Of a stretch of 64,000 nt of DNA, positions 8,452-40,349 are shown one piece after another; the first letter of the stretch is position 1, and the number at the start of each line of letters is the position of its first letter. Both the position numbers and the translations under genes were made by a program. This DNA is from an uncultured Pseudomonadota bacterium (GTDB lineage Bacteria; Pseudomonadota; Alphaproteobacteria; JACZXZ01), in NCBI GenBank assembly GCA_963842155.1, contig CAWJFP010000034.1, positions 5,514 through 69,513 of the forward strand, written 5' to 3'. The notes below the pieces were generated by a model that saw only the letters and a program-made list of their open reading frames with translations, searched no databases and had not been told where the DNA came from.

Positions 8452-8453
8452 CG

Positions 8454-10847: not shown

Positions 10848-10869
10848 GCCACGAAGAGTCTGCGCCGGT

Positions 10870-11900: not shown

Positions 11901-11919
11901 CCGCAGCAAGGAGGCAAGT

Positions 11920-13500: not shown

Positions 13501-13521
13501 GACGAAACAGGAGGTGCACAG

Positions 13522-14943
13522 ATGACGTTCGATCGCCAAGGCGTGCCGCTGACTGGGACCGAAGAAGCCGTCGGCCATTTCGACGCCGCGGTCTCCGCGC
13601 TGTTGTACTTCCGCCCCGAAGTCGGGGTCGAGACGGCCCGAGCGCTCGAGGTCGAGCCCGACCTCCCGATGGGGCGCGCCCTCGGGGGATATCTCGGAGT
13701 GCTCGGGACAGAGCCGGACGATGTGGCGTCGGCACGCGAGAGCCTCGGTGCGTGGCTGGGCAATGTGGACCGGTCCGGCTTTCACGACCGGGAACTGCGC
13801 CACCTCGCGGCCGTGACGGCTTGGCTCGGGGGTGACATGCTCGGCTGTGGCCAGCTGCTGCAGGAGGTCTCGGATCTGTATCCCCGTGACGTCCTCGCAC
13901 TTGCCGTCGGTCATCAGATCGACTTCTTCACGGGGAACGCGACGAGCCTGCGAGACCGCGTCGCCGGCGTGCTCACGGCGTGGTCGCCCGAAGACGAGCA
14001 CTACTCGCTCGTGATGGGGATGTTCGCGTTCGGTCTCGAAGAGGCCGGTCACTACGACCGGAGCGAGGACGTCGGGCGGGAGGCGGTCGAACGCAACAGC
14101 GAAGGACGTCTGGGGGATCCATGCGGTCGTTCACACTTTCGAGATGCAGGGCCGTTTCGGCGAGGGACTCCGCTACTTCGACGAGCGTGTCGGCGACTGG
14201 TCGACGGGCAACTTCTTCAACGTCCACAATTGGTGGCACTACTGCATCTACTCGCTGGAGGCGGGACGTCCCGACGTCGCGATGCGCATCTTCGACAGCG
14301 TTCTGCACAAGGACGACTCAGATGGTCTCGTGATGGAGATGCTCGACGCGTCGTCGCTGCTGTGGCGGCTCTACCTCGACGGGGCAGACGAGTCGGCGAG
14401 GTGGGCCAGCCTCGCCGACGGTTGGGATCCGAAGATGAAGACGGCCCATTACGCCTTCAACGACATGCACGCCGTGATGACATACGTGGGTGCCGGCCAG
14501 AATCGACAAAGCAGACGCGCTGATCGCCGACCGCTGCGCCTATCTCGATTCTGCGCAAGGCATTGAGAGCAATTTCATGTTCACCCGCGAGGTCGGCATG
14601 CCGGTCTGCCGGGCGATCGTGTCATTCGGGAAGGGCCGCTATGGCGAGGTGATGGATCTGCTGCTCCCGATCCGAAAGCGGATCAATCTCTTCGGGGGCA
14701 GTCACGCGCAGCGCGACACGGTGCAACGCACCCTCGTCGAGGCGCGCCCTGCGCGCCCAGCGGAGCGGGGTCGCCCGTGTTCTGCTGAGCGAGCGGATCG
14801 GCTTGAAGCCGACAAGCCCTTACAACTGGCTTACCGAAGCCAGGCTTCTCGACCAGCTCGGAGCCTCCGCCGCGGCTGCCGCCGCCATCGAGCGGGCAAC
14901 CGAGCTGCGAGCCGGGGCGGACGCCCGCTTTGCCGCCGTCTAG
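13522..14943 (+). pseudogene. TTC38-like tetratricopeptide-repeat protein, four frames needed for a full reading (shifts near 14105, 14500 and 14740)
   Basis: ATG with a perfect [39 protein letters not shown]... continues as ...[41 protein letters not shown]..., then ...[32 protein letters not shown]..., then ...ALRAQRSGVARVLLSERIGLKPTSPYNWLTEARLLDQLG...ARFAAV*. Confidence 0.5.
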
Positions 14944-14992
14944 GTGCCAACTGACGACCGCGGCCGGGCTCGGCGTCAACGCCTGTGCAACC

Positions 14993-18761: not shown

Positions 18762-18956
18762 ATGAAGGTCACGGTCGATCCTGAGCGCTGCCAGGGCCAC
18801 AATCGTTGTCACGTGCTGGTGCCCGAGATCTTCGACGTCGACGAGCTCGGCTATGCCGTCGTCACGATCCCCGAGGTGCCCGAGCACCTTGTCTCCCGAG
18901 TTCTCGAGGCGGCGCGTAACTGCCCGGAGCGGGCGATCGCAACAGATCAGCCCTGA
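18762..18956 (+). CDS. Small ferredoxin, partner of the P450
   Basis: 64 aa. MKVTVDPERCQGHNRCHVLVPEIFDVDE...ARNCPERAI is a Fdx-type Cys pattern, immediately 3' of the CYP. Confidence 0.7.
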   Translation: MKVTVDPERCQGHNRCHVLVPEIFDVDELGYAVVTIPEVPEHLVSRVLEAARNCPERAIATDQP

Positions 18957-18962
18957 TTGGGG

Positions 18963-18996
18963 TGCGCCGGGCGGCCGGCGGGTGTTTCGAATTTCG
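18963..18996 (+). terminator. Candidate intrinsic terminator after the ferredoxin: CGCCGG-gcgg-CCGGCG followed by GTGTTTCGAATTTCG
   Basis: Perfect 6-bp GC stem with a tetraloop and a T-rich tail 9 nt after the stop. Confidence 0.35.
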
Positions 18997-19080
18997 CTCA
19001 AACTTGCCTCGGCAAAACATTGCAGTCGCAATATTTTCCAGAGGGTGCGTCACGAACACTGAAGGAGGAGTTCGTTTCAT

Positions 19081-19800
19081 GGCCCGGAGGTTCCCGGACT
19101 GCCCCTTCGAGCGCTACGCCGACGATGCTGTCGTGCACTGTGTGAACAGGCACCAGGCCGAAGAGGTGCTTTCGGCCATCGCCGAGCGGATGGGAGAGGT
19201 GGGCTTAAAGCTGCACCCGGACAAGACGCGGATCGTCTACTGCAAAGACGGTGCGCGCCGTGGGCACAACGAGCACACCTCGTTCACCTTCCTTGGTTAC
19301 ACCTTTCGGACACGGGAGGCGGTCAACCCCGGGAACGGGGTGCACTTCACCGGTTTCCTGCCTGCGATGAGCACCGAGGCGCTCAAGGCCAAAGGGGCAG
19401 AGCTGCGTGCCATGCGGATACACCGGCACACTGGCTCGTCCCTAGATGACCTCGCCCAATGGCTGAACCCCATAGTCAGGGGATGGATGACCTACTACGG
19501 CCGGTTCTACCGGTCGGCGATGGCTCCCCTCCTGCAGCGTGTCAATTCCTACCTGAGGCGCTGGGCCGGGAAGAAGTATCGGCGACTGCAGACCTACAGG
19601 AGCTTCAAGCGGTGGTGGACCGGACTGGTCGATCGACAGCCCGGTCTGTTCGCCCAGTGGCGCTGGGTCCGTGCGGTCTGACTTGCAGACCGATGAGAAG
19701 AGCCCGGTGACGGGAGACTGTCACGCCGGGATCTGTGGGAGCCGGGGGCTGAGATGCCCCCGGCCACCCGACCAAGTGCGGGCGCGGGCGTTTTTTTAAA
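19081..19800 (+). mobile_element. Group II intron 3' remnant: an N-terminally truncated intron-encoded protein (begins at the YADD motif, then thumb/X maturase domain, 19081-19681) plus a downstream domain-V-like hairpin GAGCCGGGGGC-tgagat-GCCCCCGGCC
   Basis: MARRFPDCPFERYADDAVVHC (RT domain 5 with YADD)...LNPIVRGWMTYYGRFYRSAMAPLLQRVNSYLRRWAGKKY (maturase X-domain signature). RT domains 0-4 are absent. A GC hairpin starting with G-AGC-C lies ~65 nt after the stop. Confidence 0.55.
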
Positions 19801-19856: not shown

Positions 19857-20669
19857 CTAAGGGCCGGCGAGAGCCAGCTCCTCGACGAACCTGGCGACAA
19901 CGGCGTTGAACCTGCCGGCCTGCTCGTAGAACGGGCAATGGCTCGAAGCCTCGATGACCTCGAATCTTGAGCCGGGTATCTGGTCGCTGATCCACTTTCC
20001 GGCGGCGGGGCTGTTGAGCTTCGGGTCCTCGCCGAAGATGACGAGCGTCGGGAGCCTCAAGCTCGAGATCGTGGCTCTGTCGTCGCGAAGCGTCTGGTCG
20101 AGCAGGATCGAACCAGCGATTGCCGGCGGGCACTTGAGCATCTCCTCGACCATCCACGTGCGCGTCGTCTCGTCGGGCTCGTGCAACATCAGGTCTACGA
20201 ACTCGGCCGCCAGCACGGCCGGGTTGGTCTGCAGCTGCTTGTTGCCGTGGGCGAGATCCTCGGCTGTGAACACGCCGTCTGGATAGTCAGGCCACTTGAA
20301 GTCGGATGGCCCTTGGTCGACGACCACGAGCCCGGCGACATGGCTCTCACCCACCAGCTTCAGGTACTCATAGGCGACCATCGCGCCCATGGACCAGCCG
20401 ATCAATGTCGGGCGCTGTAGGCCCAGAGCCGCCGCCAGCTTGCGGACATCGTCGGCGTACTGCTCGACGGTGTGTCCGCTGAGCACGTTCTCGGATTCGC
20501 CATGACCGCGGTAGTCCGGGACGACCACCCGATAGGCGGATGAGAGCGGCTCGAGCTGGCGCTGGAAGAACCGGCCGCTCATAGACCACCCGTGCAGCAG
20601 CAGGAGCGGCTGTCCGGTCCCGAGATCGGAATAACTGATCTCGGCGCCGTTTATCGTCATTCGAGGCAT
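19857..20669 (-). CDS. Alpha/beta-fold hydrolase
   Basis: 270 aa. LLLLHGWSMSG, nucleophile elbow IGWSMGAMVA, C-terminal SSHCPF. Confidence 0.7.
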   Translation of the reverse strand: MPRMTINGAEISYSDLGTGQPLLLLHGWSMSGRFFQRQLEPLSSAYRVVVPDYRGHGESENVLSGHTVEQYADDVRKLAAALGLQRPTLIGWSMGAMVAYEYLKLVGESHVAGLVVVDQGPSDFKWPDYPDGVFTAEDLAHGNKQLQTNPAVLAAEFVDLMLHEPDETTRTWMVEEMLKCPPAIAGSILLDQTLRDDRATISSLRLPTLVIFGEDPKLNSPAAGKWISDQIPGSRFEVIEASSHCPFYEQAGRFNAVVARFVEELALAGP

Positions 20670-21968
20670 GGAAGTTCCGATCGTTGGTCCGCGTCGGCGC
20701 GGCCGAGTCGCTCAGCGGGTGAGCCGTACCTTGACTCGTAGCTCGCGACGGCGTTGGTGAAACACTCGATCGGCGCTCTCACGATTCCGGCTCCGATCTG
20801 CCCACCGTCGCGTCCCGCCAGCCCGACGTCGAGTGCGGGAGTGATACCGGTACGAGCGACGCGGAAGACGTCGATCGCTGTCGGCGTGCCTCGGTACTGG
20901 AAAAAGGGGATCCGGTAATCACTGTGCTCCCCGACTGTGATCTCGTACATTGCAAGGTTCATCTCCACCATCGCCTGCGGCGACCCGCCCTGGTAGTTCT
21001 GCAGGGGGAACGCCGCCGCCTGGGCGAATCCGCCGAGGCCGACGGTCTCGTTGATGATCGACTCGCCACCGATCCAGTCGATGTCCTCGGTGGTGAATCC
21101 CTCGAACATCCTCGCGTGAACCTGCGGGTACGGGCCGAGCTCCCACCGCTCACCGAGGCCGCTCACCCGGATCGCGACACCCCGGCAATAGAGGGCCATC
21201 GATGTCACGACGCTGGACCGGTCGATGCCGTGAGCCGGGTCGGCGGTCGCTTTACTGCTCGCCATAGAGAGTCGGAGGAAGAAATAGTCGCTTCCCGCCA
21301 GGTAGTCGAGGGTCTGCTCCACGCGCCGGCGGTCGGTCTCGGCGACGTGGAGGAGATGAGGATAAAGGTCGCGTTGGAACAGGAGCGTGGCTGCCGAGTT
21401 CCGGCTGTGGAGCTCGTCGCCCATGTGCAACGCCCGGATCATGAGGGGCTTCAGCGAGATGCCTCCGGACCGTCTTATGGCCTCGCGCAGCGTCGGCGCG
21501 ACGACATCCGCGATGAAGAGCAGCTGATCGCGAACCCCTTCGTCGTACGCTCCGTAATTGAGCCGCCTCCGGGACTCCCCTTCATAGAAGTTGCAGAACG
21601 CCACGTTCCCAAACGCCCGGTTCTCGACCGCGAATACCGGCATCGAAGCGGTGTAGATGCCGGCCACAGAGCCGATACAGCCGTGATCTTGGCAAGCCTC
21701 GACACGGATCTGGCCGTTGGCAATCTTGCGCTCGGCATCCTCGACGTCTGATGCGAGACCCTCGAAGAGCGCGCCGTAGATGATCGCCCTTCGCTGGCCT
21801 CCGAGGTAGTCCTCCCCACGCGAGGCGAGGTCCCGAGGCGAGGATCATGTCGTCCGCCATTCCTGGCACCACTTCGCGGGCGGGCTGGACGTCGACCAGC
21901 ACCGGATCGGCCCGGCACATGCGCTCGAAGGCCTCGCGGTTGGCCGCTTCCCGACCTTCGCTCACCAT
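20657..21968 (-). pseudogene. DUF1116 (YlbE-like) protein, N-terminal third in a different frame
   Basis: The C-terminal ORF (GIYTASMPVFAVENRAFGNVAFCNFYEGESRRRLNYGAYDEGV...SGLGERWE...GITPALDVGLAGRDGGQIGAGIVRAPIECF) matches E. coli YlbE closely. The N-terminal part MVSEGREAANREAFERMCRADPVLVDVQPAREVVPGMADDMILASGP sits in the ORF 21582-22421 frame. Confidence 0.6.
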
Positions 21969-22690
21969 GCCCACAGCCCTCCGTCCACCCGGACCACCGA
22001 GCCAGTGACATACGAGGCGCGCTCGGAGAGGAGGAACTCGACGACCTGTGCGACCTCGTCGACCTCTCCGAGCCTGCCAAGGGGGACCTGGTCCGAAAGC
22101 GCGTCTTCGCCTCCGGACATGGCGGCCCACACGGGTGCCATCGGGACGCGGATGTAGCCGGGCGCCACGGCGTTCACCCGGATCCGTCGCGGGGCGAGCT
22201 CGCAGGCGAGGACGCGGGTAAGGCCCTCGAGCCCCGCCTTGCTTGCCGAGTACATCGCGGTGCCCGCGAAGCGACCGATCGTCCCGACGATGCTCGATAT
22301 GTTGACGACCGCCGAACCCGCGCCGAGATGGTCGAGCGCGGCGCGCGTGACCCGACCCGCTCCCATCACGTTGACCGCCCACATGGCGTTGGCCTCTACC
22401 TCCGTCATCGCATCGGCACACGCCTCGCGCAGCACGCCTGCACAGTTGACGATCCCGGTGAGAATGCCCATTCGGTCTGCGGCCTGGACGGCTGCCTCCA
22501 CGCTCTCATCCGAGCAGACATCCATCGGGTACCCCAACACGTCGCCCGGTTCGGCCGCCGAGATCGCGCCTGGCCGGCCGGTCACAGTGACGTCTCCGGC
22601 AAGCACGCTATAGCCGGCCTCGCAGAGACGGGCACATATCGCGCGCCCTATTCCTCCCGTGCCGCCTGTCACGAGCGCGACGTTTGTCAT
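21962..22690 (-). CDS. Short-chain dehydrogenase/reductase
   Basis: MTNVALVTGGTGGIGRAIC...NAVAPGYIRV...VDGG. Overlaps the DUF1116 start by a few bp. Confidence 0.7.
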   Translation of the reverse strand: MTNVALVTGGTGGIGRAICARLCEAGYSVLAGDVTVTGRPGAISAAEPGDVLGYPMDVCSDESVEAAVQAADRMGILTGIVNCAGVLREACADAMTEVEANAMWAVNVMGAGRVTRAALDHLGAGSAVVNISSIVGTIGRFAGTAMYSASKAGLEGLTRVLACELAPRRIRVNAVAPGYIRVPMAPVWAAMSGGEDALSDQVPLGRLGEVDEVAQVVEFLLSERASYVTGSVVRVDGGLWAW

Positions 22691-22787: not shown

Positions 22788-23992
22788 TCAGACGAACGGG
22801 AGGTAGCGCCGCACCTCCCAGTCGGTCACCGCCGAGCGGAACTGCTCGAGCTCCCAACGTCGGGTGGCCGCGAAGAAACGCACGAACTCGGCACCCAGGT
22901 ACTCGACCGCGACCTCGCTTGTCTCGAAGGCCCGGATCGCCTGCTCGAGCGAGGTTGGCAGCACCTCGATAGACGAATCGTGGTAGGCGTTGTGCTCGAT
23001 CGGGTCGGTCGCCTTGATCTTGTTCTCGAGTCCGTACAGCCCGCCGGCGATGCAGCCTGCCATCGCCAGATACGGGTTGACGTCGCCGCCCGGCACACGA
23101 TTCTCCACGCGAGCTGATTCCTCGTTCTCATTGATCACCCTGATGGAGCAGGACCGGTTCTCGAATCCCCATGAGGCTGTCGTGCCGGCGCCGAGGTCGG
23201 GCTGGAGCCGTTTGTAGGAGTTGAGCGTGGGCGCGAACAACAGTGTCATCTCGCGCAGCGTCGCAACCTGTCCGCCGACGTAATCGAGAGTCAGGTCCGA
23301 GATGTGACCGGGTGCATCGGCTTGCCAGCAGAGGTTCCTTCCCTCCGACCAAAGCGACTGGTGGATGTGACAGCTCGAACCGAACCCTGGAAGCGTCTTG
23401 GCCATGAACGTTGCCATGAGGTCTTGGCTCGCGGCGATCTCCTTCACCGCGTGCTTGAAGAGGAAGGCCCGGTCCGCCGCCTCGAGCAGGTCGCAGTAGA
23501 GCAGGTTCACCTCCTGTTGGCCCGCTCCGCCTTCGGGATTCCAGTACTCGATGGGGATGCCGTAGGTCTCCATGTAGCTTGTAAGAGGGCGGATGATGTG
23601 CTCGTCGGTCGTGCCCCGAAAGATGCTGTAGGCGCCGAGGCGGAGATTCATGGGCTTCAAGGCGGCCGGCCGGTAGCCGCTTTGCTCCAGACTCTCTTCG
23701 CTCTCCTTGAAGAGAAAGAACTCCAGTTCGGCCGCGAACTTCGGCTCGAGCCCGCGCGCGGACGCCCGCTCGACAAGGCGCCGCAGCACACGGCGCGGCG
23801 CGATCTCCACCGATGAGCCGTCGTGGAAGAAGTGCTCGCAGAGCACGACCGCGGTGCGGTCGAGCCAGGGCAGCGACGCGAAGCGTTGCAAGATCGGGGA
23901 TCGGGAGCACGTCGGCAAAACCGAGATCCCACGACGGCCACCAGCCTGGGTAGCCAGGCTGCGCGCGTCATGACGAGCTCCTCGGTGTCCAT
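22788..23992 (-). pseudogene. Glutamine-synthetase-family protein (GlnA/PuuA-like catalytic domain), N-terminal ~30 codons spread over two other frames
   Basis: VVLCEHFFHDGSSVEIAPRRVLRRLVERASARGLEPKFAAELEFFLF...NSYKRL...GFENRSCSIRV...EVLPTSLEQAI are GS hallmarks. MDTEELVMTRAAW / GYPGWWPSWDLGFADVLPIPDLATLR lie in shifted frames. Confidence 0.55.
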
Positions 23993-24858
23993 TGGGCCTG
24001 CGGCTGGCCTTCGCGGGCCCCCAGGCGACGGTCGCGGAATGCCTCGCCGCGCGTCGCGTGCTCTATGAGCGCTTTTGGAGGCCCGTCGCGGTAGCGGCCC
24101 TGAATACCGCAGCCGAGGAGGGCGCGGCGCGGCTGCTCTGGGCCGTGGTGGCGGAAACCTTCGGCCGGGGCGGCAGTGCCGTGCGACCCTGCGTGGCGCG
24201 CGACGGGCTCTCGTCGAGCTTCGTCGATCCCGCCTTGCGGCGGCTGGCCGAACGCGGCGTCGAGCTCGGCTTCAACCGCCGCCTGCGCGCGCTCGCGGTG
24301 GCGGAGAAGCGCGTCGCGGCCCTCGACTTCGGCGAAGAGACTATCGCGCTCGGCGCCGAGGATGCGGTCATCCTGGCCTTGCCGCCTGCGCGGATCGACG
24401 AGCTCCTGCCCGGCTCGGTCGTGCCGCTCGAGACGCGGGCGATCGTGAACGGCCATTTCCGGCTCGACCGGGTGCCCGATTTCCCCGGCGGTTTTCCCTT
24501 CCTCGGCCTGATCGGCGGGACGGCGGAATGGCTCTTCCGCCGCGGCGACGTGGTGTCGGTCACGGTGAGCGCCGCCGACGCCCTCGCCGAGCACAGCAAC
24601 GAAGCCATCGCCGAACGGCTCTGGGCCGACATCGCGCGCGCACTCGGCCTGCCGCTCTCGCAGCGGACCCGAGTGCGGATCGTCAAGGAGAAGCGCGCCA
24701 CCTTCGCCCAGACCCCCGCGGCGCTGCCCAAGCGCGCGCCCGTCCGCACCCAGCTCGCCAACCTCTATCTGGCGGGTGACTGGACCGATACGGGCCTCCC
24801 CGCCACCATCGAGAGCGCCGTGCGTTCCGGGCATGCGGCGGCGGCGGCGGCGGCGTAG
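23992..24858 (+). pseudogene. hpnE: hpnE (hydroxysqualene dehydroxylase, FAD/amine-oxidase fold), C-terminal 288 codons only. The 5' ~130-150 codons, including the FAD-binding N-terminus, are missing. hpnC and hpnD are absent upstream
   Basis: ...[48 protein letters not shown]...[23 protein letters not shown] matches the amine-oxidase C-terminus. Synteny with shc/hpnG/hpnH follows. The ORF starts at TTG, has no GxGxxG motif, and the region upstream encodes an unrelated gene on the other strand. Confidence 0.6.
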
Positions 24859-24943: not shown

Positions 24944-25471
24944 ATGCCGATCAAGTCCCGCATCCGCACCATCCCGGATTATCCCAAGCCGGGCATCATG
25001 TTCCGGGACATCACCACCTTGCTCCAGGATCCCGTGGGCTTCCGCGTGACGATGGAGCGGCTGATCAAGCCCTTCGAGGGGCTGCGGATCGACAAGGTGG
25101 CGGGCATCGAGGCGCGCGGCTTCATCCTCGGCGGCGCGGTCGCCCATGCGCTGGGCGCGGGTTTCATTCCCGTGCGCAAGAAGGGGAAGCTGCCCTGGCA
25201 AACCATCGGCCAGGACTACATCCTCGAATATGGCAGCGACCGCATCGAGATCCACAGCGACGCCATCCTGGAGGGCGAGCGCATCCTTCTCGTGGACGAT
25301 CTCGTCGCGACCGGCGGGACGGCGACCGCCGCGATCACGCTGCTGCGCCAGGCGGGTGCTGAAATCGTCGGCGCCGCCTTCGTCATCGATCTGCCCGAGC
25401 TGGGCGGCCGCGCGCGCATCGAAGCGATGGGCGTCGAGGCGACCGTGCTCTGCGCCTTCGAGGGGCATTGA
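24944..25471 (+). CDS. apt: Adenine phosphoribosyltransferase
   Basis: 175 aa. [10 protein letters not shown]...[16 protein letters not shown] (PRPP-binding motif). ATGA overlap with shc. Confidence 0.8.
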
Positions 25472-27414
25472 GGAGGAGGGTCATGCCGGAGGGTCAGGCT
25501 TCCATTGCGGACGCGCGCCTCGACAAGGCGATCGCGGAGGCGGCGGCGGCGCTCAAGGCGCTGCAGAAGGCCGACGGCCATTGGGTGTTCGAGCTCGAGG
25601 CCGACGCCACGATTCCGGCCGAATATGTCATGCTCGGCCATTATCTCGGCGAGATCGATGCCGCGACGTACGCCAAGATCGCCGTCTATCTGCGCGACAA
25701 TCAAGCCGGGCACGGCGGCTGGGCGCTCTACCATGGCGGCAACTTCAATCTTTCGACCTCGGTCAAGGCCTATTACGCCCTCAAGCTGTGCGGCGACAGC
25801 CCCGAGGCCCCGCATATGCGTCGCGCGCGCGAGGCGATTCATGCCGCGGGCGGTGCCGCGCGCTGCAACGTCTTTACGCGCTTCACCCTCGCGCTCTTCG
25901 AGCAGATTCCCTGGCGCGGCGTGCCCGTCATGCCGGTCGAGATCATGCTGCTGCCGCGCTGGTTCCCCTTCCATCTCGAGAAGGTGAGCTACTGGTCGCG
26001 CACGGTGATCGTGCCGCTCTTGCTGCTCTCCGTCCTCAAGCCCAAGGCCAAGAACCCGCGCGGCGTCGACATCAAGGAGCTTTTCCTCCAGCCGCCCGAA
26101 GAGGTGCAGGACTACCAGACCAATCCCACGGGCGCCGCCATGGGCGAGTTCTTCCTGGCGCTCGACAAGCTTTTGCGTATCGCCGAGCCCTTCTTCCCCA
26201 AAGGGCGGCGGCGCCAGGCGATGGGTCGCGCCGTCGATTGGATCACCAAGCGCCTCAACGGCGAGGACGGGCTCGGCGGCATCTATCCGGCCATGGCGAA
26301 CACCGTGATGGCCTTCGAGGCGCTGGGATATCCCAAGGACCATCCCGACCTCCTTATCGCCAAGCGCTCGGTGAGGAAACTGTTCGTGCCGGGGGAAAGC
26401 TTCGCCTACTCGCAGCCTTGCCTCTCGCCGGTGTGGGACACGGGGCTCGCCGCCTTGACGCTCATGGAGGTGGAGCCGCCGCATGACGGCTCCGACACCG
26501 CGCGCGCCATGGCTTGGCTCGTCGAGCGCCAGATTCTCGACGTAAGGGGCGATTGGGCGGACCGGCGGCCGGAGCTGCGACCGGGCGGCTGGGCCTTCCA
26601 ATATCGCAACGACCATTACCCCGACGTCGACGACACGGCCGTGGTCGGCATCGCCCTCGACCGCATGGCCGACCCGCGCTACCGCGCCTCGATCGACCGC
26701 GCGGCGGAATGGATCGTCGGCATGCAATGCGAGAACGGCGGCTGGGCCTCCTTCGATGCCGAAAACACCTGCTTCTACCTCAACCACATCCCCTTCGCCG
26801 ATCACGGCGCGCTCCTCGACCCGCCGAGCGCCGACGTGACCGCACGCTGCCTGGGCTTCCTCGCGCAGATCGGTTATCGCCGCGACAATCCCATCGTCGC
26901 GCGCGGCATCGACTATCTGAAGCGCGAGCAGGAGGCGGACGGTTCCTGGTTCGGCCGTTGGGGCACGAACTACATCTACGGCACATGGTCGGTGCTCTCC
27001 GCCCTCAACGCGACCGGCGAGGATGCCCAAGCGCCTTATATCCGCAAGGCGGTCGAATGGCTGAAGGCGCGCCAGCGCGAGGATGACGGCTGGGGCGAGG
27101 ACGGCGCCAGCTACTGGCCGGGCCGGAAGGCCGAGGTCAAGGAGAGCACGGCCTCGCAGACGGCTTGGGCGCTGCTCGCCCTCATGGCGGCGGGCGAGGC
27201 CGAGAGCGAGGCCGTCAAGCGCGGCATCGCCTTCCTGCTCGACGCGCCGCGCGAGGGTTGCGAATGGGCCGAGCGCTGGTACACGGCGGTCGGCTTCCCG
27301 CGCGTCTTCTATCTGCGCTACCACGGCTATCGCCGCTATTTCCCGCTTTGGGCGCTGGCGCGCTACCGCAACATCAAGCGCGGCAACGACAAGACCGTCG
27401 CCTACGGATTGTGA
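25468..27414 (+). CDS. shc: Squalene-hopene cyclase
   Basis: 648 aa. Repeated QxxxGxW motifs (QADGHW, QAGHGGW, QCENGGW, QEADGSW, QREDDGW) and the catalytic DVDDTAVV motif. Confidence 0.9.
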
Positions 27415-28110
27415 GCCGGATCGGCATCGTCGTCGGCATGCAGGCCGAGGCCGCGCGGGTTTCGGCGGCAAGCGCCGGCCTTGACGCGGCAGACCGGCCG
27501 CTCGTCGCCGTGACCGGCGGCTCGGCCCGCCGCGCCGAGGAAGCGGCGCTCGCGCTCGCCGCGCAAGACGTCTCGGGCCTGCTGAGCTTCGGGCTTTGCG
27601 GCGGGCTCGATCCTTCGCTCCGCACGGGCGATGTCGTGCTTGCGGACGAGGTGGTCGGCGCCCGACGGGCGGCGCAGCGCCACGGACGAGGACTGGCGCG
27701 TGCGCATGGCGGCGAGGCTCGAACGCCGCGGCCTCCTGGTCGCGGGCGCCATCGCCGGACGCGACGAGATCCTGGCGCGGCCGGCCGCGAAGGAGAGGGT
27801 ACGTCACGCCACGGGCGCCGTCGCCGTCGATATGGAAAGCCACGGCGTCGCGCGCGCCGCCGCCGGCCGCAAGCTGCCCTTCCTGGCGCTTCGTCTCGTC
27901 CTCGATCCGGCGAGCCTTGCCCTGCCCTGGTCGGCCGAGGCGGGGTTGGCGCCCGATGGGCGCGCGCGGCTCTGGCCGGTGCTGGGCCGTCTTGCGCTCA
28001 GGCCTTGGGAGCTGCCGGCGCTGCTCGCGCTCGGCCGCGCCAACGATGCGGCGCTCGAGGCGCTAGGCCGCCTGGCTGGCGAGCTTGCGCCGCTCGGCTT
28101 CCTCATGTAG
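27411..28110 (+). pseudogene. hpnG: hpnG, hopanoid-associated nucleosidase/phosphorylase (MTA/SAH-nucleosidase fold), with one frameshift near 27660. GTG start overlaps the shc stop
   Basis: [18 protein letters not shown]...LLSFGLCGGLD (N-terminal frame), then ...RMAARLERRGLLVAGAIAGRDEILARPAAKERVRHATGAVAVDMESHGVARAAAGRKLPFLALRLVLD (ORF 27631-28110 frame). Confidence 0.6.
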
Positions 28111-29211
28111 CTCGCGGAGCGCCTTCTGCACGTTTGTCTCGAAGACATATTCGGCCGGACGCTGCCCGTCGAGCGGGATATCCGCGACCATCGGGCCATC
28201 CGTGCGCGGGCCGCGGAGCGCAACCTTGAGAGCCTTCCAGGGATGGCGAATGGAATCGTCGGCGGCGGTCGGCTCATAGCCGCAATGGACCATGCAGTTC
28301 GCGCATTTCTCGTAGTTGCCGGTGCCGTACTTCTCCCATTCCGTCTCTTCCATCAGCGCGGCGAAACTCTCGGCATAGCCCTCGCCCAGGAGATAGCAGG
28401 GCCGCTGCCAGCCGAACACGTTGCGCGTCGGGTTGCCCCACGGCGTGCAGTGATATTGCTGATTGCCCGCGAGATAATCGAGGAAGAGCGAGGACTGGCT
28501 GAGGCGCCATTTGCGGCCGCGGCCGCGGCGGAAGACCTCGCGGAACAGCTCCTTGGTCTTCTCGCGCTTGAGGAAGTGGGCCTGATCGGGCGCGCGCTCG
28601 TAGGCATAGCCCGGCGAGATGGTGATGGCGTCGACCTTGAGCTCGAAGCTCGCATAATCGAGGAACTTGGCGATGCGGTCGGGATCGAGCCCGTCGAAGA
28701 TGGTCGAGTTGACGCTGATGCGGAAGCCCTTGGCCTGGGCCGCGCGGATGGCAGAGACGGCGCGCTCGAACACGCCGTCCTGGCTCACGGCGCGGTCATG
28801 TTCCTCCTTGAGCCCGTCGAGATGGACCGAGAAGGTGAGGTAGGGCGAGGGCTTGAAGAGGTCGAGCTTCTTCTCCAGCAGCAGCGCGTTGGTGCAGAGA
28901 TAGACGAACTTCTTGCGCGCCACGATGCCGTCCACGATGCGGCCGATGTCCTTGTGGAGCAGCGGCTCGCCGCCGGGGATCGAGACGATGGGCGCGCCGC
29001 ATTCGTCCACCGCCGCGAGGCATTCCTCGACCGACAGGCGCTTGTTCAGGATCTCGTCGGGATAGTCGATCTTGCCGCAGCCGGCGCAGGCCAGATTGCA
29101 GCGGAACAGCGGCTCCAGCATGAGCACGAGCGGATAGCGCTCGCGGCGCATCATGCGCTGCTTGACGATATATCCGCCGACGCGGATCTGCTGGATGAGA
29201 GGTACGCTCAA
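28063..29211 (-). CDS. hpnH: hpnH, radical-SAM adenosylhopane synthase
   Basis: 382 aa. RCNLACAGCGKIDYP (CxxxCxxC), SIPGGEPLL. The 3' end overlaps the hpnG 3' end by 48 bp (convergent). Confidence 0.85.
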   Translation of the reverse strand: MSVPLIQQIRVGGYIVKQRMMRRERYPLVLMLEPLFRCNLACAGCGKIDYPDEILNKRLSVEECLAAVDECGAPIVSIPGGEPLLHKDIGRIVDGIVARKKFVYLCTNALLLEKKLDLFKPSPYLTFSVHLDGLKEEHDRAVSQDGVFERAVSAIRAAQAKGFRISVNSTIFDGLDPDRIAKFLDYASFELKVDAITISPGYAYERAPDQAHFLKREKTKELFREVFRRGRGRKWRLSQSSLFLDYLAGNQQYHCTPWGNPTRNVFGWQRPCYLLGEGYAESFAALMEETEWEKYGTGNYEKCANCMVHCGYEPTAADDSIRHPWKALKVALRGPRTDGPMVADIPLDGQRPAEYVFETNVQKALRELHEEAERRKLASQAA

Positions 29212-29275
29212 GGCTCTGCTCCGTCTTGCCTCTGCTCGGTACGCGCTTTGCCGCGCGCTTCCTTAAACTACCGCC

Positions 29276-30238
29276 TCAAACCACTGCCTCGTCGCGCAGC
29301 TCGGCGGGAAGCTTGAACTGCACGTTCTCGCGGATGCCGTCGAGCACGCTGACCTCGACGTCGTTGAAGTCGCGCAGCCGCGCGATCAGCTCCTGCACCA
29401 GGTCTTCCGGCGCCGAGGCTCCTGCGGTGATGCCGACCGCTTCGGCCCCTTTGAGCCAGCGCGGGTCGAGCTGCGCCGCGTCGTCGATGAGATAGCTCGC
29501 CACGCCCATCTCGGTGCCGATCTCGCGCAGCCGGTTCGAATTCGAGCTGTTGCGCGCGCCCACCACCAGGATGACGTCGACCTCGCGCGCCAGCTCGCGC
29601 ACGGCGGCCTGGCGGTTCTGCGTGGCGTAGCAGATGTCCTTGACGTCCGGCCCCAATATGTGGGGGAAGCGGCGCTTCAAGGCCTCGATCACCTCGCGGG
29701 TGTCGTCGACCGAGAGCGTCGTCTGGGTGACGTAGGAAAGCTTGCCCGGGTCGGCGACCTGGAGCTTCTCCACGTCGGCCGGCTTGGAGACGAGATGCAC
29801 CTTGCCCGGAATGCGGCCCATGGTGCCCTCGACCTCGGGATGGCCCTGATGGCCGATCAGCACGACCTCGAAGCCGCCCTCGGCGTAGCGCTGGCCCTCC
29901 TTATGGACCTTGGCGACGAGCGGGCAGGTGGCGTCGATCACCGGCAGGCGCCGCAGATCGGCCTCGTCCTCCACCTGCTGCGCCACGCCATGGGCGCTGA
30001 AGACCGTGATGGCGCCCTCGGGCACCTCGTCGAGCTCCTCGACGAAGATGGCGCCCTTGGTCTTGAGATCCTCGACCACGCGCTTGTTATGCACGATCTC
30101 GTGGCGGACATAGACGGGCGGGCCATAACGCTTCAGCGCGCGCTCGACGATCTCGATCGCCCGCTCCACGCCCGCGCAGAAGCCTCTCGGTTGGGCAAGC
30201 ACGACCCGCATGCTATTCCTCGTAATATGCAACACCAC
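29276..30238 (-). CDS. ispH: 4-hydroxy-3-methylbut-2-enyl diphosphate reductase, hopanoid-cluster copy
   Basis: 320 aa. [11 protein letters not shown]...VRHEIVHN...ATCPLV...ATQNRQ are LytB/IspH hallmarks. Confidence 0.85.
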
Positions 30239-30405
30239 GCTCGCGGAACGCGCGACGCTCCACGCCGATAGACGAATCCGTGATGATGTAGCATGCCGAC
30301 CCGCGCAAGGGAAGACGAAGGCCAGGCGGCCTGCGGTCGCGGGCCCGCCAGCCGGCTGACAAGCCTTTGTTTTCGTTCACTCCGCCGGGCCCCGCCGCAA
30401 TTTGG

Positions 30406-31413
30406 TCATGAGGCCTTGCGGCGGGCGAGATAGCCGTTCTCGCGGAACCAGGCCACGGCGTCGGCGATGGCCTCGACCGCCGGGCGCGGCGCGTAGCCGA
30501 GCGCCCGCCGCGCCTTGTCGATCTTGAAATACATGTGCTTCTTGGCAAGTCGCACCCCGTCCACTGTGGCGACCGGCTCGGGCCCGCCGAAAAGCCGCGC
30601 CACCGTCTCGGCGACATAGGCGATCGGCAGCACGGCGCTGTGCGGTATGCGCCAGCGCGGCGGCTTGCCGCCGGTGATCAGCGCCACCTCCTCGAGAATG
30701 GCCCGCAACGACATGTTCTCGGCGCCGAGAATATAGCGCTCGCCCACCGCGCCGCGCTCGAAGGCGAGCCAATGGCCTTCGGCCACGTCGTCGACATGGA
30801 CGATGTTGAGCCCGGTATCGACATAGCCCGGCATCCTGCCCGCGGCGGCCTCGAGGATCATCCGCCCGGTCGGCGTGGGCTTGATGTCGCGCGGGCCCAC
30901 GGGCGCGGAGGGATTCACGATCACGGCCGGCAGGCCGCGTGCCCGCACCAGCCGGCGCACCTCCTCCTCGGCCATGAACTTGGATCGCTTGTAGTGGCCC
31001 ACCATGTCGTCGAGCGAGGACGGCGTCTCTTCGTCGGCGGGCGAGCCGTCTTCATGGAGGCCCAAGGTCGCCACGCTGCTGGTATAGACGATACGCGCGA
31101 CGTTGGCCTCGAGCGCCGCGAGCATGAGATTGCGCGTGCCTTCGACGTTGGCGCGATAGAGCGGAGCCGGGTCGGGTACCCAGAGCCGATAATCCGCTGC
31201 GACATGGAAGAGCGCGTCGCAGCCCTTGGCGGCGGCCTTGAGCGAGGCGAGGTCAATCAAATCGCCCGTCGCGATTTCGCAATCGAGGCCCGCGACGTTG
31301 CGTCGATCGCTGGTGGGCCGCACGAGCGCGCGCGTCTCGATCCCTTGCGCGACGAGGCGGCGCAGCACGGCCGAGCCCACGAAGCCTGCGGCGCCGGTGA
31401 CGAGCGCCTTCAT
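30406..31413 (-). CDS. hpnA: hpnA, hopanoid-associated NAD-dependent sugar epimerase/dehydratase-family protein
   Basis: 335 aa. MKALVTGAAGFVGSAVLRRL (Rossmann). Position in the hpn cluster. Confidence 0.75.
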   Translation of the reverse strand: MKALVTGAAGFVGSAVLRRLVAQGIETRALVRPTSDRRNVAGLDCEIATGDLIDLASLKAAAKGCDALFHVAADYRLWVPDPAPLYRANVEGTRNLMLAALEANVARIVYTSSVATLGLHEDGSPADEETPSSLDDMVGHYKRSKFMAEEEVRRLVRARGLPAVIVNPSAPVGPRDIKPTPTGRMILEAAAGRMPGYVDTGLNIVHVDDVAEGHWLAFERGAVGERYILGAENMSLRAILEEVALITGGKPPRWRIPHSAVLPIAYVAETVARLFGGPEPVATVDGVRLAKKHMYFKIDKARRALGYAPRPAVEAIADAVAWFRENGYLARRKAS

Positions 31414-31422
31414 GGCTGCAGC

Positions 31423-34161
31423 CTAGCGGCGCCGAGCAGCGGCCTCGCCGGCGGCCGCCCGCCGGAGACGCTGCTCGCGCCACATCAGAAGAGCCGGCAG
31501 CACGATAAGCGTGCAAGCCAGCGCCAAGGTCAGGCAGATGCCGAGCAGATAGCCCGTGCCGGCGGTGCCGCGATGATACGACACCATCAGGCTCGAGAAG
31601 GACACCATGGTGGTGAGCGCCGAAAACAGCACGGCGCGCGGCGTGCTGGTGCGCAGGAGCGCGATCACGCTTCCCGTCTCGCGCAGCCGCAGGATGAGAT
31701 AGATGCCGAACGCGACGCCCAGGCTGAAGAGCAGCGGCAAGGCGATGATGTTGGCGAAGTTGAAGGCGAGGCCGAACAGCACCGTGACGGCGATGGTGAG
31801 CAGGCCGGCGAGCGCCAAGGGCAGCAGGACGAGCAGCCAATCGCGGAAGCTGCGCAGGATCAGTACCAGCAGCAGCCCGATGGCGATGAAGGCGATGATT
31901 CCCGCCTGCTCGAACGCGCCCACGACGATCTTACCGCCCTCGAGCAGCAGCACCGGCGTGTCGGTGGCGTCCGGCGCGACCGCCTTCACCCTGTCGACGA
32001 AGCGCGTCAGCACCGCCTTGTCAATGCGGCGCGCCGTCGGGAAGACCTCGACGCGCGCGCGCCCGTCGGCGGCGAGATAGCGCGAGCGCAGATTCTCGGG
32101 CAGGCTCCGCAGCGTCACCGGTTCGGCCGTCATCAGCTCCTTGAGCCCCGCGAGGCGGCCCGGGAAATTCGCGATCAGCGCATCCTCGAGGCCGGCATAG
32201 GCGGCGGGATTCTGCCCGCGCTCCGCATCGAAGCGGGCGAGCAGCTCGGCCAGGCGCCGCGCAGGACCGGCCGCGGCGTCCGCCTTGGGCGAGGCGGCGA
32301 GCTTCTCGAGCTTCTGCCGCAGCCCGTCGCTCGCCTGCCGCCGCTCGGCGTCGCTCGGCGGCGGCTTGGGCGTGGCGGCGGCGAGAACCGGCGTCATGAA
32401 GGTCGCCATCTGGTCGATAAGACGCAGCTTGGCCGGCTGATCCTCGGGCACGAAGGAGCTCAGCGTCACCGTGTTGTCGACCTCGGGCAGCCGCTCCAAC
32501 CGCTTGGCGAGCGCGTCGGCCGCGGCCAGATCGGGCGCCACGATGTTGATCGAGTAGGGCGAGGTGGAGCTGCCCGTGGTGAGCTCGCCATAGGCCTTCA
32601 CCGATTCCGTCGTCGGATCCTTGAGATTGATCGGATCGATATCGAACCGCGCGTAGGGCAAGGCGAACAGCGAGGCTATGCCGAGCGCAAGCGCGCCGAG
32701 ACAAATGGTCCGCGCATGGCGCGCGAAGAAGGTGCCAGCCGCCTTGCCGTTGCGCGCGTCGCTGCGCCGCGGGCTCGGACGGATCGGCATGACGGCGAAC
32801 AGCGCGGGCAGCAGCGTCATGGTGGCGAAGAAACCGATGAACATGCCGACACCGGCGATGATGCCGAGCTCGCGCAAGCCCACATATTCGGTCGGGATGA
32901 AGGAGAGGAAGCCGATCGCCGCGCAAAGCGCCGCTAGGCCGACGGCGATCCCGGTGCCGCCCGCGGCCGCGTCGAGCGCCTCGCGCAGGCTGGCGCCGCC
33001 GTCGATCGCCTCCTTGTAGCGCATGCCGAATTGGATGCTGAAATCGACCGCGAGGCCGATGAAGAGGACAGCGAAGGCGACCGAGATCAAGTTCAGATGG
33101 CCGATGGCGAGCGTGGCGAAGGCGGCGGTCCAGATCAAGCTCAACACCAGGCTGACGATGGTCGCCAGAACGAGTTTGAGCGAGCGCAGGCCAATGATCA
33201 CGAGGACGCTGACGAGGAGCAGGGAGAGAAGGCTGGCGAGGCCGACGCCCTTTCGCACGCTGTCCAGCTCGTCCTGGTCGAGCGCCGGGCTTCCGGTCAG
33301 CATGACTTGCACGCCGTGGGCCGGGTCGAGATGGAGCTCCGCCGCCGTGTCGTGGATGAAATCCGTCGCCGCCTGCGCGGGATCGAGCGAGCGGTAGTCG
33401 AGCTTCGGCCGCACCAGGATAATCTGGCGGCGGTCGGCCGGCTTGTCCGGAAGCCCGGTCATGAGGTCGCGCCAGGAGAGCCGCGCGGGCTTGCCCTCGA
33501 GGCGTCGCTCGACCGCATCGCCGATCTTGGAGAGGGGGCGGACGAGAAGTCCGGCATCGACCTCGCCCATCGCGATGCCGTCCGCGGCTTGTCCCAGCAC
33601 GTGGAAAAGGCCGCGTAGGCTGGGGTCGCTGACGAGCGTGCCGAGCAGCGGCTGCGCTTGCGCGAGCCGGTCGGAAAGCTCGCCGAGCTCCCTGCTGTCG
33701 AGAAAGAGCAGGCCCTCGCGCCGGAAGAAGCTATCGCCGCCGGGGAAGAAAAAGCCGGAAAAGAGATCGGTCTTCGGCCGCAGCCGCGCGGCAAGAAGAT
33801 TGGCCGCGTCCTCGGCGCGATCGGGACTGTCGCCCTCGATCAGCACGACGAGGCTATCCTCCAGGCTCGGAAAGGCTTGCTCGAAGGCTTTAAAAGTCTG
33901 CCAATAAGGCAGCTTCTGGTTGAGCAGCGCGCCGGTATCGGTGTGGATGCCGAGGTGGGTCACGGTGTACCAGCCACCGGCGGCCGTGAGGATGACGGAG
34001 CCGACGATGATCGGCCAGGCGAGACGGCGCACCCACTCGACCCACCACACGAAGGCGCGCGATATGCGCGGCGCGGCACCGCCGCCCTCCGGCGGCTCGG
34101 TCAGCCGCTCCTGCCATCTCGGCTCTTCCGATGGCTCAACGTGAAGGCGTTGGAGGCTCAT
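31423..34161 (-). CDS. hpnN: hpnN, RND/MMPL-family hopanoid transporter
   Basis: About 913 aa from MSLQRLHVE... Two 6-TM bundles with large periplasmic loops. Adjacent to hpnA and hpnH. Confidence 0.8.
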   Translation of the reverse strand: MSLQRLHVEPSEEPRWQERLTEPPEGGGAAPRISRAFVWWVEWVRRLAWPIIVGSVILTAAGGWYTVTHLGIHTDTGALLNQKLPYWQTFKAFEQAFPSLEDSLVVLIEGDSPDRAEDAANLLAARLRPKTDLFSGFFFPGGDSFFRREGLLFLDSRELGELSDRLAQAQPLLGTLVSDPSLRGLFHVLGQAADGIAMGEVDAGLLVRPLSKIGDAVERRLEGKPARLSWRDLMTGLPDKPADRRQIILVRPKLDYRSLDPAQAATDFIHDTAAELHLDPAHGVQVMLTGSPALDQDELDSVRKGVGLASLLSLLLVSVLVIIGLRSLKLVLATIVSLVLSLIWTAAFATLAIGHLNLISVAFAVLFIGLAVDFSIQFGMRYKEAIDGGASLREALDAAAGGTGIAVGLAALCAAIGFLSFIPTEYVGLRELGIIAGVGMFIGFFATMTLLPALFAVMPIRPSPRRSDARNGKAAGTFFARHARTICLGALALGIASLFALPYARFDIDPINLKDPTTESVKAYGELTTGSSTSPYSINIVAPDLAAADALAKRLERLPEVDNTVTLSSFVPEDQPAKLRLIDQMATFMTPVLAAATPKPPPSDAERRQASDGLRQKLEKLAASPKADAAAGPARRLAELLARFDAERGQNPAAYAGLEDALIANFPGRLAGLKELMTAEPVTLRSLPENLRSRYLAADGRARVEVFPTARRIDKAVLTRFVDRVKAVAPDATDTPVLLLEGGKIVVGAFEQAGIIAFIAIGLLLVLILRSFRDWLLVLLPLALAGLLTIAVTVLFGLAFNFANIIALPLLFSLGVAFGIYLILRLRETGSVIALLRTSTPRAVLFSALTTMVSFSSLMVSYHRGTAGTGYLLGICLTLALACTLIVLPALLMWREQRLRRAAAGEAAARRR

Positions 34162-40331: not shown

Positions 40332-40349
40332 CGAAAGGAGAGGCGAACC

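Follow-up and report, generated by a model that had tools for sequence, protein, structure and literature searches.

Comparison of the Locus with Described Systems

The hopanoid cluster of the alphaproteobacterial type has the order hpnC-hpnD-hpnE-shc-hpnG-hpnH-ispH-hpnA-hpnN-hpnM, and the RMM-type bacterial microcompartment loci of Actinomycetota include those of the aminoacetone/1-amino-2-propanol type. Counterparts of both lie here within a single window, the whole 64,000-nucleotide stretch of DNA that was analyzed (Table 1). The right-hand block shares gene order and orientation with the clusters of L001, L093 and the contig encoding P0003, in which apt precedes shc and is followed by hpnG, hpnH, ispH, hpnA, hpnN and a MlaC-like hpnM. 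It differs from alphaproteobacterial hopanoid clusters in that hpnC, the intervening glycosyltransferase gene, hpnD and codons 1-129 of hpnE are missing and hpnG is frameshifted. Like the RMM loci of Actinomycetota, the left-hand block contains genes for a class-III aminotransferase, an aldehyde dehydrogenase, BMC-H and EutN shell proteins, an APH-family kinase and a GntR regulator; unlike in those loci, the kinase gene is frameshifted in the window.

A different kind of precedent is provided by long-read metagenome assemblies, in which multi-phylum chimeric contigs have been documented and recognised by abrupt shifts in gene taxonomy and composition (bioRxiv 10.1101/2025.04.22.649783; metaFlye, metaMDBG and hifiasm-meta). 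The present contig resembles these in the sudden shift of both properties at a single point, in the origin of its two sides from different phyla and in its frame-breaking indels. Read clipping and coverage served to diagnose the published chimeras; the diagnosis made here is drawn from the sequence, the technology and assembler being deduced from the indel pattern and from the records of relatives ('contig_N', ENA ERZ250395xx, putatively of the Microflora Danica project).

Table 1. Features of the window on either side of the junction
Feature	Coordinates	Strand	Remarks
Window left end	157-4359		Belongs to left-hand organism, not to junction
Hydrolase	353-1180		Frameshifted
TMEM175	1181-2050	-	
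tRNA-Glu(CTC)	2937-3010		
Tyrosine integrase	3301-4359		Phage_integrase
RMM-type microcompartment locus	5567-11978	+	Left-type composition; class-III aminotransferase, aldehyde dehydrogenase, BMC and EutN shell proteins, frameshifted APH-family kinase
Genes syntenic with actinobacterium-like contigs L002-L006	11917-22787		Order: SDR, GntR/UTRA, hyp472, GntR, esterase, SDR, P450, ferredoxin, hydrolase, AllG-like, SDR
P450	17542-18750		
Ferredoxin	18762-18956		
Group II intron, 5'-truncated	18950-19780	+	RT/maturase fragment 18962-19681; domain V/VI 19698-19772
Hydrolase	19857-20669	-	
AllG-like	20657-21968	-	Frameshift at ~21812
SDR	21962-22690	-	
Glutamine-synthetase-family (GS-like) remnant	22788-23992	-	Codons 72-471 of relatives' ~471; Gln-synt_C complete
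Junction	23992-23994		Base 23993 (T) unmatched in both sets of relatives (alignments to L001, L003, L006)
hpnE (hydroxysqualene dehydroxylase) remnant	23994-24858	+	Codons 130-416; FAD/NAD-binding N terminus absent
Rest of hopanoid cluster (alphaproteobacterial)	24944-35187		Colinear with L001 and L093
apt	24944-25471	+	
shc	25468-27414	+	
hpnG	27411-28110	+	Split by frameshift at ~27.66-27.72 kb
hpnH	28063-29211	-	
ispH	29276-30238	-	
hpnA	30406-31413	-	
hpnN	31423-c. 34100	-	
hpnM	34549-35187	+	MlaC-like
Alphaproteobacterial core genome	35188-64000		Composition that of the hopanoid cluster; SodC, cytochrome c, acyl-CoA synthetase-like, pepF, ABC1 kinase, pntAA/AB/B, COQ9-like, def, alpha-2-macroglobulin and PBP1C, purEK, glcDE
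pepF	Within 35188-64000		Frameshift at ~42.95 kb

Position and Character of the Junction

The first-pass annotation had reported an abrupt junction at hpnE. The junction is real and sharper than that description, since base-level alignments to L001, L003 and L006 resolve it to a single base, 23993. Alignments to the left-hand relatives (L003 and L006) stop at window position 23992, and the nucleotide alignment to L001 (95.3% identity over 3,655 bp) has 23994 as its first base. The genes flanking the join are arranged head-to-head, and each lacks its own 5' end. Gene taxonomy, tetranucleotide composition and Markov-model score all change at this point.

The base-level alignments revealed no shared k-mer, no microhomology longer than ~1 nt and no filler at the join, and neither an insertion sequence (IS), a transposase, a terminal, inverted or direct repeat nor an att site was found there by Pfam and repeat searches. 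A misjoin mediated by a repeat or k-mer, or an IS at the join, was thus rejected, shared sequence, IS ends and palindromes being present at no more than chance level. Likewise, the join carries no mobile-element end, inverted repeats or microhomology of the kind expected of a deletion scar left by an IS or by recombination.

The 30-mer spanning the junction was not found in JGI metagenome contigs, which is weak evidence given that no other dataset contained this population at >95% identity. The truncated proteins encoded on the two sides (P0001 and P0121) were singletons among ~15 billion proteins, and their closest relatives in protein searches were 95% identical for the right side and 83% for the left. 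The missing parts of both genes and their missing neighbors, as would be found at the reciprocal junction of an inversion, gave no tblastn match within the window, which rules out an inversion with its reciprocal junction there.

The Truncated Genes

Of the 443-position Amino_oxidase profile, the open reading frame at 23992-24858 (+) covers no more than positions 151-441, and when it is aligned with P0002, the full-length 416-aa HpnE encoded on the closest relative, L001, residues 130-402 of the latter are matched. It is represented in the database by P0001 (288 aa, TTG start at 23992). Thus, hpnE has lost its first 129 codons, among them those for the NAD_binding_8 part, the earlier estimate having been ~130-150 codons; the absence of hpnC and hpnD, also claimed previously, was borne out by a tblastn search of the whole window, in which hpnC, the glycosyltransferase gene and hpnD of L001 had zero matches. 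By contrast, hpnC-glycosyltransferase-hpnD-hpnE lie upstream in L001, L087, L092, L093 and the P0003 contig (known for the last from its gene table only). An intact hpnCDE elsewhere had been named as an informative finding, and the closest relative, L001, at 95% nucleotide identity, carries an intact hpnC-glycosyltransferase-hpnD-hpnE. A complete cluster, in which shc adjoins the squalene synthesis genes hpnC, hpnD and full-length hpnE, is a property of the relatives and not of the window. The relatives also vary around hpnE, with toxin-antitoxin (TA) modules, a Fic gene or a 9-kb insert between hpnE and apt.

The hpnE remnant is an open frame with zero internal frameshifts or stops, and its dN/dS relative to L001 is 0.15, as compared with 0.20 for shc. 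By these measures the remnant shows normal purifying selection and bears no sign of a past as a pseudogene. In addition, shc, hpnH, ispH, hpnA and hpnN are all intact. The best named matches of HpnE were from 'Alphaproteobacteria bacterium' MAGs (71-74% identity), and its full-length homologue on L001 is 95% identical. The earlier description of the right-hand block as alphaproteobacterial stands, but the Rhizobiales type that it gave to some of the genes is not established, the best named HpnE matches being to those MAGs.

On the other side of the join, the GS-like gene lacks its N-terminal 71 codons and corresponds to database entry P0121 (367 aa). Within the last 120 bp on its 5' side, 1-bp insertions at ~23962 and ~23872 shift the reading into two other frames; these insertions could be consensus errors. 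It had been noted that the hpnE reading frame starts at the base where the minus-strand GS-like gene begins. However, the GS-like gene is not complete there, its codons 1-71 being absent. Its best matches at the level of species genomes were in Dormibacterota (60%) and, at no more than 45%, in Acidimicrobiia. A Dormibacterota locus (L007) was rejected as a relative of the left block, having only the GS-like gene in common with it and no synteny. The full gene, with conserved upstream genes, is present in L002-L006 (at least 24 contigs). In the left-hand relatives, synteny runs on beyond the GS-like gene through a luciferase-like gene, a permease gene and a second GS gene, all of which are absent from the window as judged by tblastn.

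Origins of the Two Blocks

Tetranucleotide correlations were 0.95-0.98 within each side and with the relatives of that side, and 0.82-0.91 across the join. A likelihood ratio from 5-mer Markov models, for which sequence of the relatives non-homologous to the window was the sole training material, changes sign at ~24 kb. Given that this independently trained ratio flips at the join and then keeps its sign across the 24 kb and the 40 kb that lie to either side, the junction is not a product of chance. GC3 values are 0.72-0.85 for the left side and 0.85-0.93 for the right. Thus, the two comparisons suggested by the first-pass annotation, of composition and of taxonomic assignment, both separate the halves: the composition differs sharply and the assignments disagree. 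The gene contents that it had listed for each block were confirmed with Pfam, Rfam and ARAGORN.

Everything on the left side is Actinomycetota-like, the tRNA-Glu gene, the integrase gene and the sequence to the left of both included, and the right side consists of alphaproteobacterial core genome. Relatives of individual left-side genes (GS-like, TMEM175 and the reverse transcriptase (RT) of the intron) belong to Actinomycetota or Dormibacterota, TMEM175 having ~70% identity to proteins of Acidimicrobiales and Streptosporangiaceae. Bases 157-3496 were found again at 95-99% identity on an independent contig, L088, with the same arrangement of tRNA and integrase genes. Indels account for approximately half of the differences between L088 and the window, a proportion typical of long-read consensus error. 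Among the 56 loci compared, a tRNA-Glu gene was present only on L088, and the comparison carries no taxonomic information. Because the sequence beyond the tRNA gene on its left is actinobacterial and the same arrangement is present on L088, the integrase island is assigned from its sequence context to the left-hand organism. Similarly, given that the tRNA-Glu gene, the integrase gene and the sequence preceding them all have left-type character and recur on L088, the left block is, to judge from its sequence, ordinary chromosome of another organism and not an island with alphaproteobacterial flanks. The microcompartment locus is not part of the junction.

Frameshifts are unequally distributed. 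Approximately 15 were counted in the 24 kb on the left by manual and reference-based inspection (~8 of these were flagged by a uniform periodicity HMM), as compared with 2 in the 40 kb on the right, such that the density on the left is at least 6 times that on the right. Those on the left are clustered at 0.35-1.2 kb, at 10.9-14.9 kb and at the 5' end of the GS-like gene, and the broken genes retain well-conserved residues between the shifts. This imbalance suggests an unequal read depth of the two sides, for which frameshift density is the sole proxy here. The left-hand excess could instead consist of real pseudogenes in decaying foreign DNA.

Explanations for the Junction

The junction is very probably an artefactual join between two co-occurring organisms made during long-read metagenome assembly. 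The first-pass annotation had offered a chimera, an insertion that deleted hpnCD and the 5' end of hpnE, and long-range horizontal transfer; the chimera is the option favored by the present data. Bases 1-23,992, from an Actinomycetota-like chromosome, would have been blunt-joined to bases 23,994-64,000, from an alphaproteobacterial chromosome, both organisms probably being residents of the same soil or sediment sample. The assembler may have connected the ends of two contigs of low coverage, for instance by way of a chimeric read or by concatenating them end to end. A lower read depth of the left-hand organism would have led to its much denser 1-bp indel errors, including the two within 120 bp of the join. 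The real alphaproteobacterial genome would then have hpnE, hpnD and hpnC intact, and the real actinobacterial genome an intact GS-like gene.

Consistent with such a join, each side stops in mid-gene, as at contig or read ends, and the features by which a chimera is known are present: an abrupt switch of taxonomy, a switch of composition and codon bias, colinear continuation of each side in other assemblies and, more weakly, the lack of the junction in independent data. Misjoins in assembly graphs usually occur at shared repeats. The lack of any shared sequence here counts against an artefact, for which a chimeric read or concatenation must be invoked.

An artefactual join matters chiefly for quality control, in that the public contig (~180 kb) and its MAG probably mix two phyla. 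Taken at face value, the contig would lead to the false conclusions that an alphaproteobacterium harbors an actinobacterial block with microcompartment and P450 genes, that a hopanoid cluster can lack hpnCDE and that two truncated proteins (288 and 367 aa) are 'novel'.

The alternative that survives best, though it is unlikely, is a genuine and very recent inter-phylum transfer, in which illegitimate, end-joining-like recombination placed at least 24 kb of chromosomal DNA from an actinobacterium within the hopanoid operon of an alphaproteobacterium. The consequence would have been deletion of hpnC, the glycosyltransferase gene, hpnD and hpnE codons 1-129, and the foreign genes would now be decaying. 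A blunt join with no shared repeat fits illegitimate recombination, unlike a repeat-mediated graph misjoin, and the variable surroundings of hpnE in relatives described above would also suit a transfer. However, alphaproteobacterial sequence never returns in the 24 kb to the left, such that the other end of the insert is not seen. The tRNA gene of the left block and its flanks are arranged as on an actinobacterial contig at 98.7% identity, which would require an extremely recent event, and composition shows no amelioration.

The many frameshifted genes and truncated elements on the left, together with the hpnG frameshift, could be read as decay after loss of squalene synthesis. Against this, relaxed selection is not apparent in the hpnE remnant, and shc, hpnH, ispH, hpnA and hpnN remain intact despite being useless without HpnCDE. 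Moreover, the equal depth expected along one molecule cannot explain an indel difference of at least 6-fold unless the entire excess is decay, and the conservation of residues between the shifts in the broken genes argues against decay. Protein searches and JGI metagenomes have not revealed the junction elsewhere.

That the contig is correct as it stands, with a soil alphaproteobacterium having very recently taken at least 24 kb from a co-resident actinobacterium by blunt illegitimate recombination that destroyed squalene synthesis, is given a marginally slimmer chance still. If true, it would be a snapshot of inter-phylum transfer prior to amelioration, in which a tRNA gene, an integrase island, a microcompartment locus and a P450 cluster had moved. 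An unusually fresh and large transfer of this kind would deserve a closer look.

It is very improbable that the junction is the right end of a genomic island targeted to tRNA-Glu by the tyrosine integrase, with integration or a later deletion truncating hpnE. The arrangement at 2.9-4.4 kb is the classical one of tRNA-integrating islands with tyrosine integrases, the integrase gene lying immediately 3' of the tRNA-Glu(CTC) gene and accessory genes following. Unlike such islands, the locus lacks an att repeat at the junction: neither a direct repeat nor a further copy of the tRNA 3' end occurs near 23.9-24.0 kb, and no repeat of the tRNA region longer than 13 nt occurs anywhere in the window. 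Nor does recipient sequence lie outside the tRNA gene; both of its flanks are of the left lineage, bases 157-2936 being actinobacterial and contiguous with the tRNA and integrase genes on the independent contig L088. Furthermore, the genes at 11.9-24 kb constitute chromosomal synteny that is conserved in at least 24 contigs and runs on past the GS-like gene. The island is thereby refuted as an explanation of this junction, and a link between the junction and the tRNA-Glu and integrase genes, implied in the first-pass annotation, is unsupported. Any island lies within the left-hand organism and has no relation to the break in hpnE.

A rearrangement (deletion or inversion) within one organism to which both halves are native is likewise very improbable: head-to-head, 5'-truncated genes are the expected remains of a deletion between divergently transcribed genes, but the halves differ in phylum-level gene affinity and oligonucleotide signature, each matches separate independent contigs, and the reciprocal junction and missing gene halves are absent from the window.

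The Group II Intron and Other Scars in the Left Block

The truncated group II intron stands in place of two genes found in L003. Its local composition seemed to lean toward that of the right-hand block, and it was considered as a trace of a stay of the left block in an alphaproteobacterial cell; this was rejected, the best RT matches all being from Actinomycetota despite the many rhizobial plasmids in the database. Together with a truncated FMN_dh gene, the intron is one of the structural scars in the left block. These scars indicate that genuine rearrangement occurs in that DNA, an observation that counts against a misjoin.

Two 5'-truncated genes meet at the junction

The hpnE reading frame at the junction matches the flavin amine-oxidase profile at positions 151-441 only of 443. 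The same 288-aa protein (P0001) has a single database occurrence, on a 179,699-bp contig (NCBI, ENA). A full-length HpnE of 416 aa (P0002), 95% identical to the remnant, was retrieved by database search together with many homologues of 415-435 aa carrying an N-terminal NAD_binding_8 domain. The contig encoding P0002 (L001; JGI, 7.1 kb) has the gene order hpnC-glycosyltransferase-hpnD-hpnE-apt-shc-hpnG and aligns with the window at 95.3% over 3,655 bp, beginning at L001:3465 and window:23994. L001 bases 1-3464, comprising hpnC, the glycosyltransferase, hpnD and hpnE codons 1-129, have no counterpart in the entire window. The profile match and this alignment confirm the abrupt junction and 5'-truncated hpnE described in the first-pass annotation; the absence of hpnC and hpnD is likewise borne out, and an intact hpnCDE exists elsewhere, on L001.

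Relatives of the glutamine-synthetase-family (GS-like) protein are 468-471 aa long (P0122 at 83%, P0123 at 82%). Nucleotide homology with two actinobacterium-like contigs, L003 and L006, passes the called GS-like start and stops at window 23992, equivalent to codon 72. Given that the L001 alignment starts at 23994, both genes are 5'-truncated and lie head-to-head. Base-level alignments place the breakpoint at base 23993 and show neither overlap nor microhomology nor filler there. The reported truncation of hpnE at the GS-like boundary stood, but the GS-like gene is not whole at its start: it is also 5'-truncated, and two 1-bp insertions in its final 120 bp shift the frame twice. The position of both insertions, no more than 120 bp to the left of the join, would fit a low-coverage contig end.

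Relative to L001, dN/dS was 0.15 for the hpnE remnant, 0.20 for shc and 0 for apt. With this value and a frame with neither frameshift nor in-frame stop, the remnant shows no sign of having spent long as a pseudogene. The reading frames of shc, hpnH, ispH, hpnA and hpnN are all intact, which would be odd if the genome had lost squalene synthesis.

Features on the two sides of the junction (base 23993)
Feature	Position	Strand	Remarks
Left end			hydrolase, TMEM175, tRNA-Glu(CTC), tyrosine integrase
Hydrolase	353-1180		~3 frameshifts
FMN-dependent dehydrogenase fragment	4910-5398	-	profile positions 1-108 of 350
Left block			RMM-type microcompartment locus
Left block			regulators, esterase, SDRs, P450 with ferredoxin, 5'-truncated group II intron
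APH-family kinase (left)			at least 2 frameshifts
SDR (left)	11.9-12.7 kb		~4 frameshifts
472-aa hypothetical (left)			at least 3 frameshifts
Group II intron, 5'-truncated	18950-19780		RT/maturase 18962-19681 (RVT_1 143-205 and GIIM); domain V/VI 19698-19772 (Rfam Intron_gpII)
Left block, toward join			hydrolase, AllG-like gene, SDR, GS-like remnant
GS-like ORF	22788-23918	-	Gln-synt_C complete, N-terminal domain absent
hpnE remnant ORF	23992-24858	+	288 aa, TTG start
Hopanoid cluster, right of join			apt, shc, hpnG, hpnH, ispH, hpnA, hpnN, MlaC-like hpnM (Pfam; comparison with right-block relatives L001/L093)
hpnG	27411-28110		frame change ~27.66-27.72 kb
Low-GC islet	40000-42000		GC 0.56 vs ~0.68 around; weak codon periodicity
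DUF2971 protein	40880-41848		inside islet
pepF (oligopeptidase F)	42007-43804		frame change ~42.95-43.0 kb; Peptidase_M3_N and Peptidase_M3 180-456 in different frames
Core genes, right of join			pepF, ABC1 kinase, pntAA/AB/B, def, purEK, alpha-2-macroglobulin with PBP1C, glcDE (Pfam; L001/L093)
Alpha-2-macroglobulin, PBP1C	50816-57855		1650 aa and 778 aa; both intact

Taxonomy and composition change at the join

Among GTDB species representatives, the GS-like protein had its best match in a Dormibacterota MAG (60%), with Acidimicrobiia next at ≤45%. Named relatives of TMEM175 (~70%) belong to Acidimicrobiales and Streptosporangiaceae, and the best plasmid matches of the intron reverse transcriptase were all from Streptomyces, Rhodococcus or Mycobacterium in a database that includes hundreds of rhizobial plasmids. 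For HpnE, the named relatives are MAGs of Alphaproteobacteria at 71-74%, which places the right block to class level. These affiliations support the earlier description of an actinobacterial-type left and an alphaproteobacterial right.

By tetranucleotide frequency, three 8-kb left chunks correlated at 0.95-0.98 with one another and with L003 and L006; their correlation with loci of Acidimicrobiia and other Actinomycetota was 0.89-0.96. On the right, the five chunks correlated at 0.96-0.99 mutually and with L001 and L087, a further right-block relative. Correlations across the join were 0.82-0.91, as against 0.95-0.99 within sides. A 5-mer Markov likelihood ratio was trained solely on those segments of the relatives that lack a homologue in the window. 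It was positive over almost the whole of 3-24 kb and negative throughout 24-64 kb, its sign flipping at the join. Taxonomy and sequence composition agree in indicating that the left block is foreign to the right.

From position 11.9 kb up to the join, gene order is that of L002-L006 (77-81% nucleotide identity); the L002-L005 type is present on at least 24 contigs. Contigs of this type continue the synteny past the GS-like gene with genes that are missing from the window: a luciferase-like gene, an amino-acid permease, a second GS and a diol dehydratase.

The intron replaces two L003 genes, encoding a luciferase-like protein (275 aa) and a hydrolase (302 aa). Just downstream of the integrase, the remainder of the FMN-dependent dehydrogenase is not recognisable in any frame; the fragment looks like a real truncation beside an integrase island.

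Frameshift density differs between the sides

Against accurate references, six frameshifts were counted in 10.4 kb on the left (two GS-like, one AllG-like, three in the 472-aa hypothetical) and one, in hpnG, in 8.8 kb on the right; the sole window-L001 indel is intergenic. A uniform GC-periodicity HMM, which misses the known hpnG shift, left ~8 same-strand frame switches unexplained in the left block and one (pepF) in the right. Manual inspection brought the totals to ~15 and 2, hpnG and pepF being the only genes in which a frameshift was found across the 40 kb of alphaproteobacterial sequence. Where the window differs from L088, an independent contig matching the left end, about half of the changes are indels, a share far above biological ratios. 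This left-hand pattern is the appearance of a low-depth long-read consensus, and the unequal error density suggests unequal depth, i.e. two genomes. The left frameshifts cluster at 10850-14950 and 353-1180, residues between shifts are well conserved, and the neighbouring aminotransferase, ALDH, P450 and esterase genes are intact; the clusters reflect either locally poor consensus quality or real pseudogenes.

Origin of the junction

Taken together, the junction is very probably an artefactual join: it exists in the record, but most likely in no living organism's genome. P0001 and the 367-aa GS-like remnant (P0121) are singletons among ~15 billion sequences, and a scan of JGI metagenome contigs for the junction 30-mer gave no match. 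Long-read metagenome assemblers have been documented to produce contigs that fuse different phyla; such chimeras are recognised where composition, coverage and gene taxonomy change abruptly (bioRxiv 10.1101/2025.04.22.649783). Relatives L006, L087, L088 and L089 belong to ENA assemblies whose contigs are named in the style of Flye ('contig_N'); metaFlye followed by a single Medaka round was the procedure in one large project of this kind (PMC12313526). The window probably derives from similar long-read data. The chief value of the result is as a quality flag: a public contig and its MAG are probably chimeric, and the two truncated proteins probably spurious.

An inter-phylum insertion that is real and very recent, and that removed hpnC through the hpnE 5' end, is improbable. 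In its favour, the join is blunt and without a shared repeat, unlike the usual graph misjoin, so that under the artefact reading a chimeric read or concatenation would have to be invoked; the clustered left frameshifts could be true pseudogenes, and the truncated intron and dehydrogenase are real scars. Such an insertion would, however, need DNA that shows no amelioration and matches a co-occurring actinobacterial contig at 98.7% identity, a second boundary more than 24 kb away, which was not seen, and an hpnE remnant and most of a now useless pathway left undecayed, with hpnG alone frameshifted. Its low standing reflects that all three would have to hold together.

Readings of the junction as a tRNA island or a single-genome rearrangement are effectively excluded. 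No copy of the tRNA 3' end was found near 24 kb by repeat search, and DNA left of tRNA-Glu is likewise actinobacterial. L088 (6.6 kb, ENA ERZ25039587) matches window 157-3496 at 98.7% and 94.7% and carries TMEM175, tRNA-Glu(CTC) and the integrase start, so that both tRNA flanks recur there and the 24 kb as a whole behave like normal chromosomal DNA of a different organism. Within the window, alphaproteobacterial sequence does not return anywhere left of the join.

L088 differs from the window by a 2.46-kb IS21-family element (IstA/IstB; L088 1425-3886) inserted at window ~2074-2086. Some 12 bp align on both sides of it, a probable target-site duplication; the difference is a strain-level insertion polymorphism within the left-hand lineage.

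Further features of the right block

Relatives vary in what separates hpnE from apt, a slot with no insert in the window or in L001. Among L087, L092/L093 and the contig carrying P0003 (the last by gene table only), one relative has a HigB/HTH toxin-antitoxin pair there, two have a Fic protein, and another has a 9-kb insert (LysR, SDRs, TRAP transporter). The glycosyltransferase between hpnC and hpnD is common to all relatives compared. The low-GC islet is possibly a small foreign insertion into the alphaproteobacterial block. The bacterial alpha-2-macroglobulin is directly followed by the PBP1C-type penicillin-binding protein, a known arrangement.
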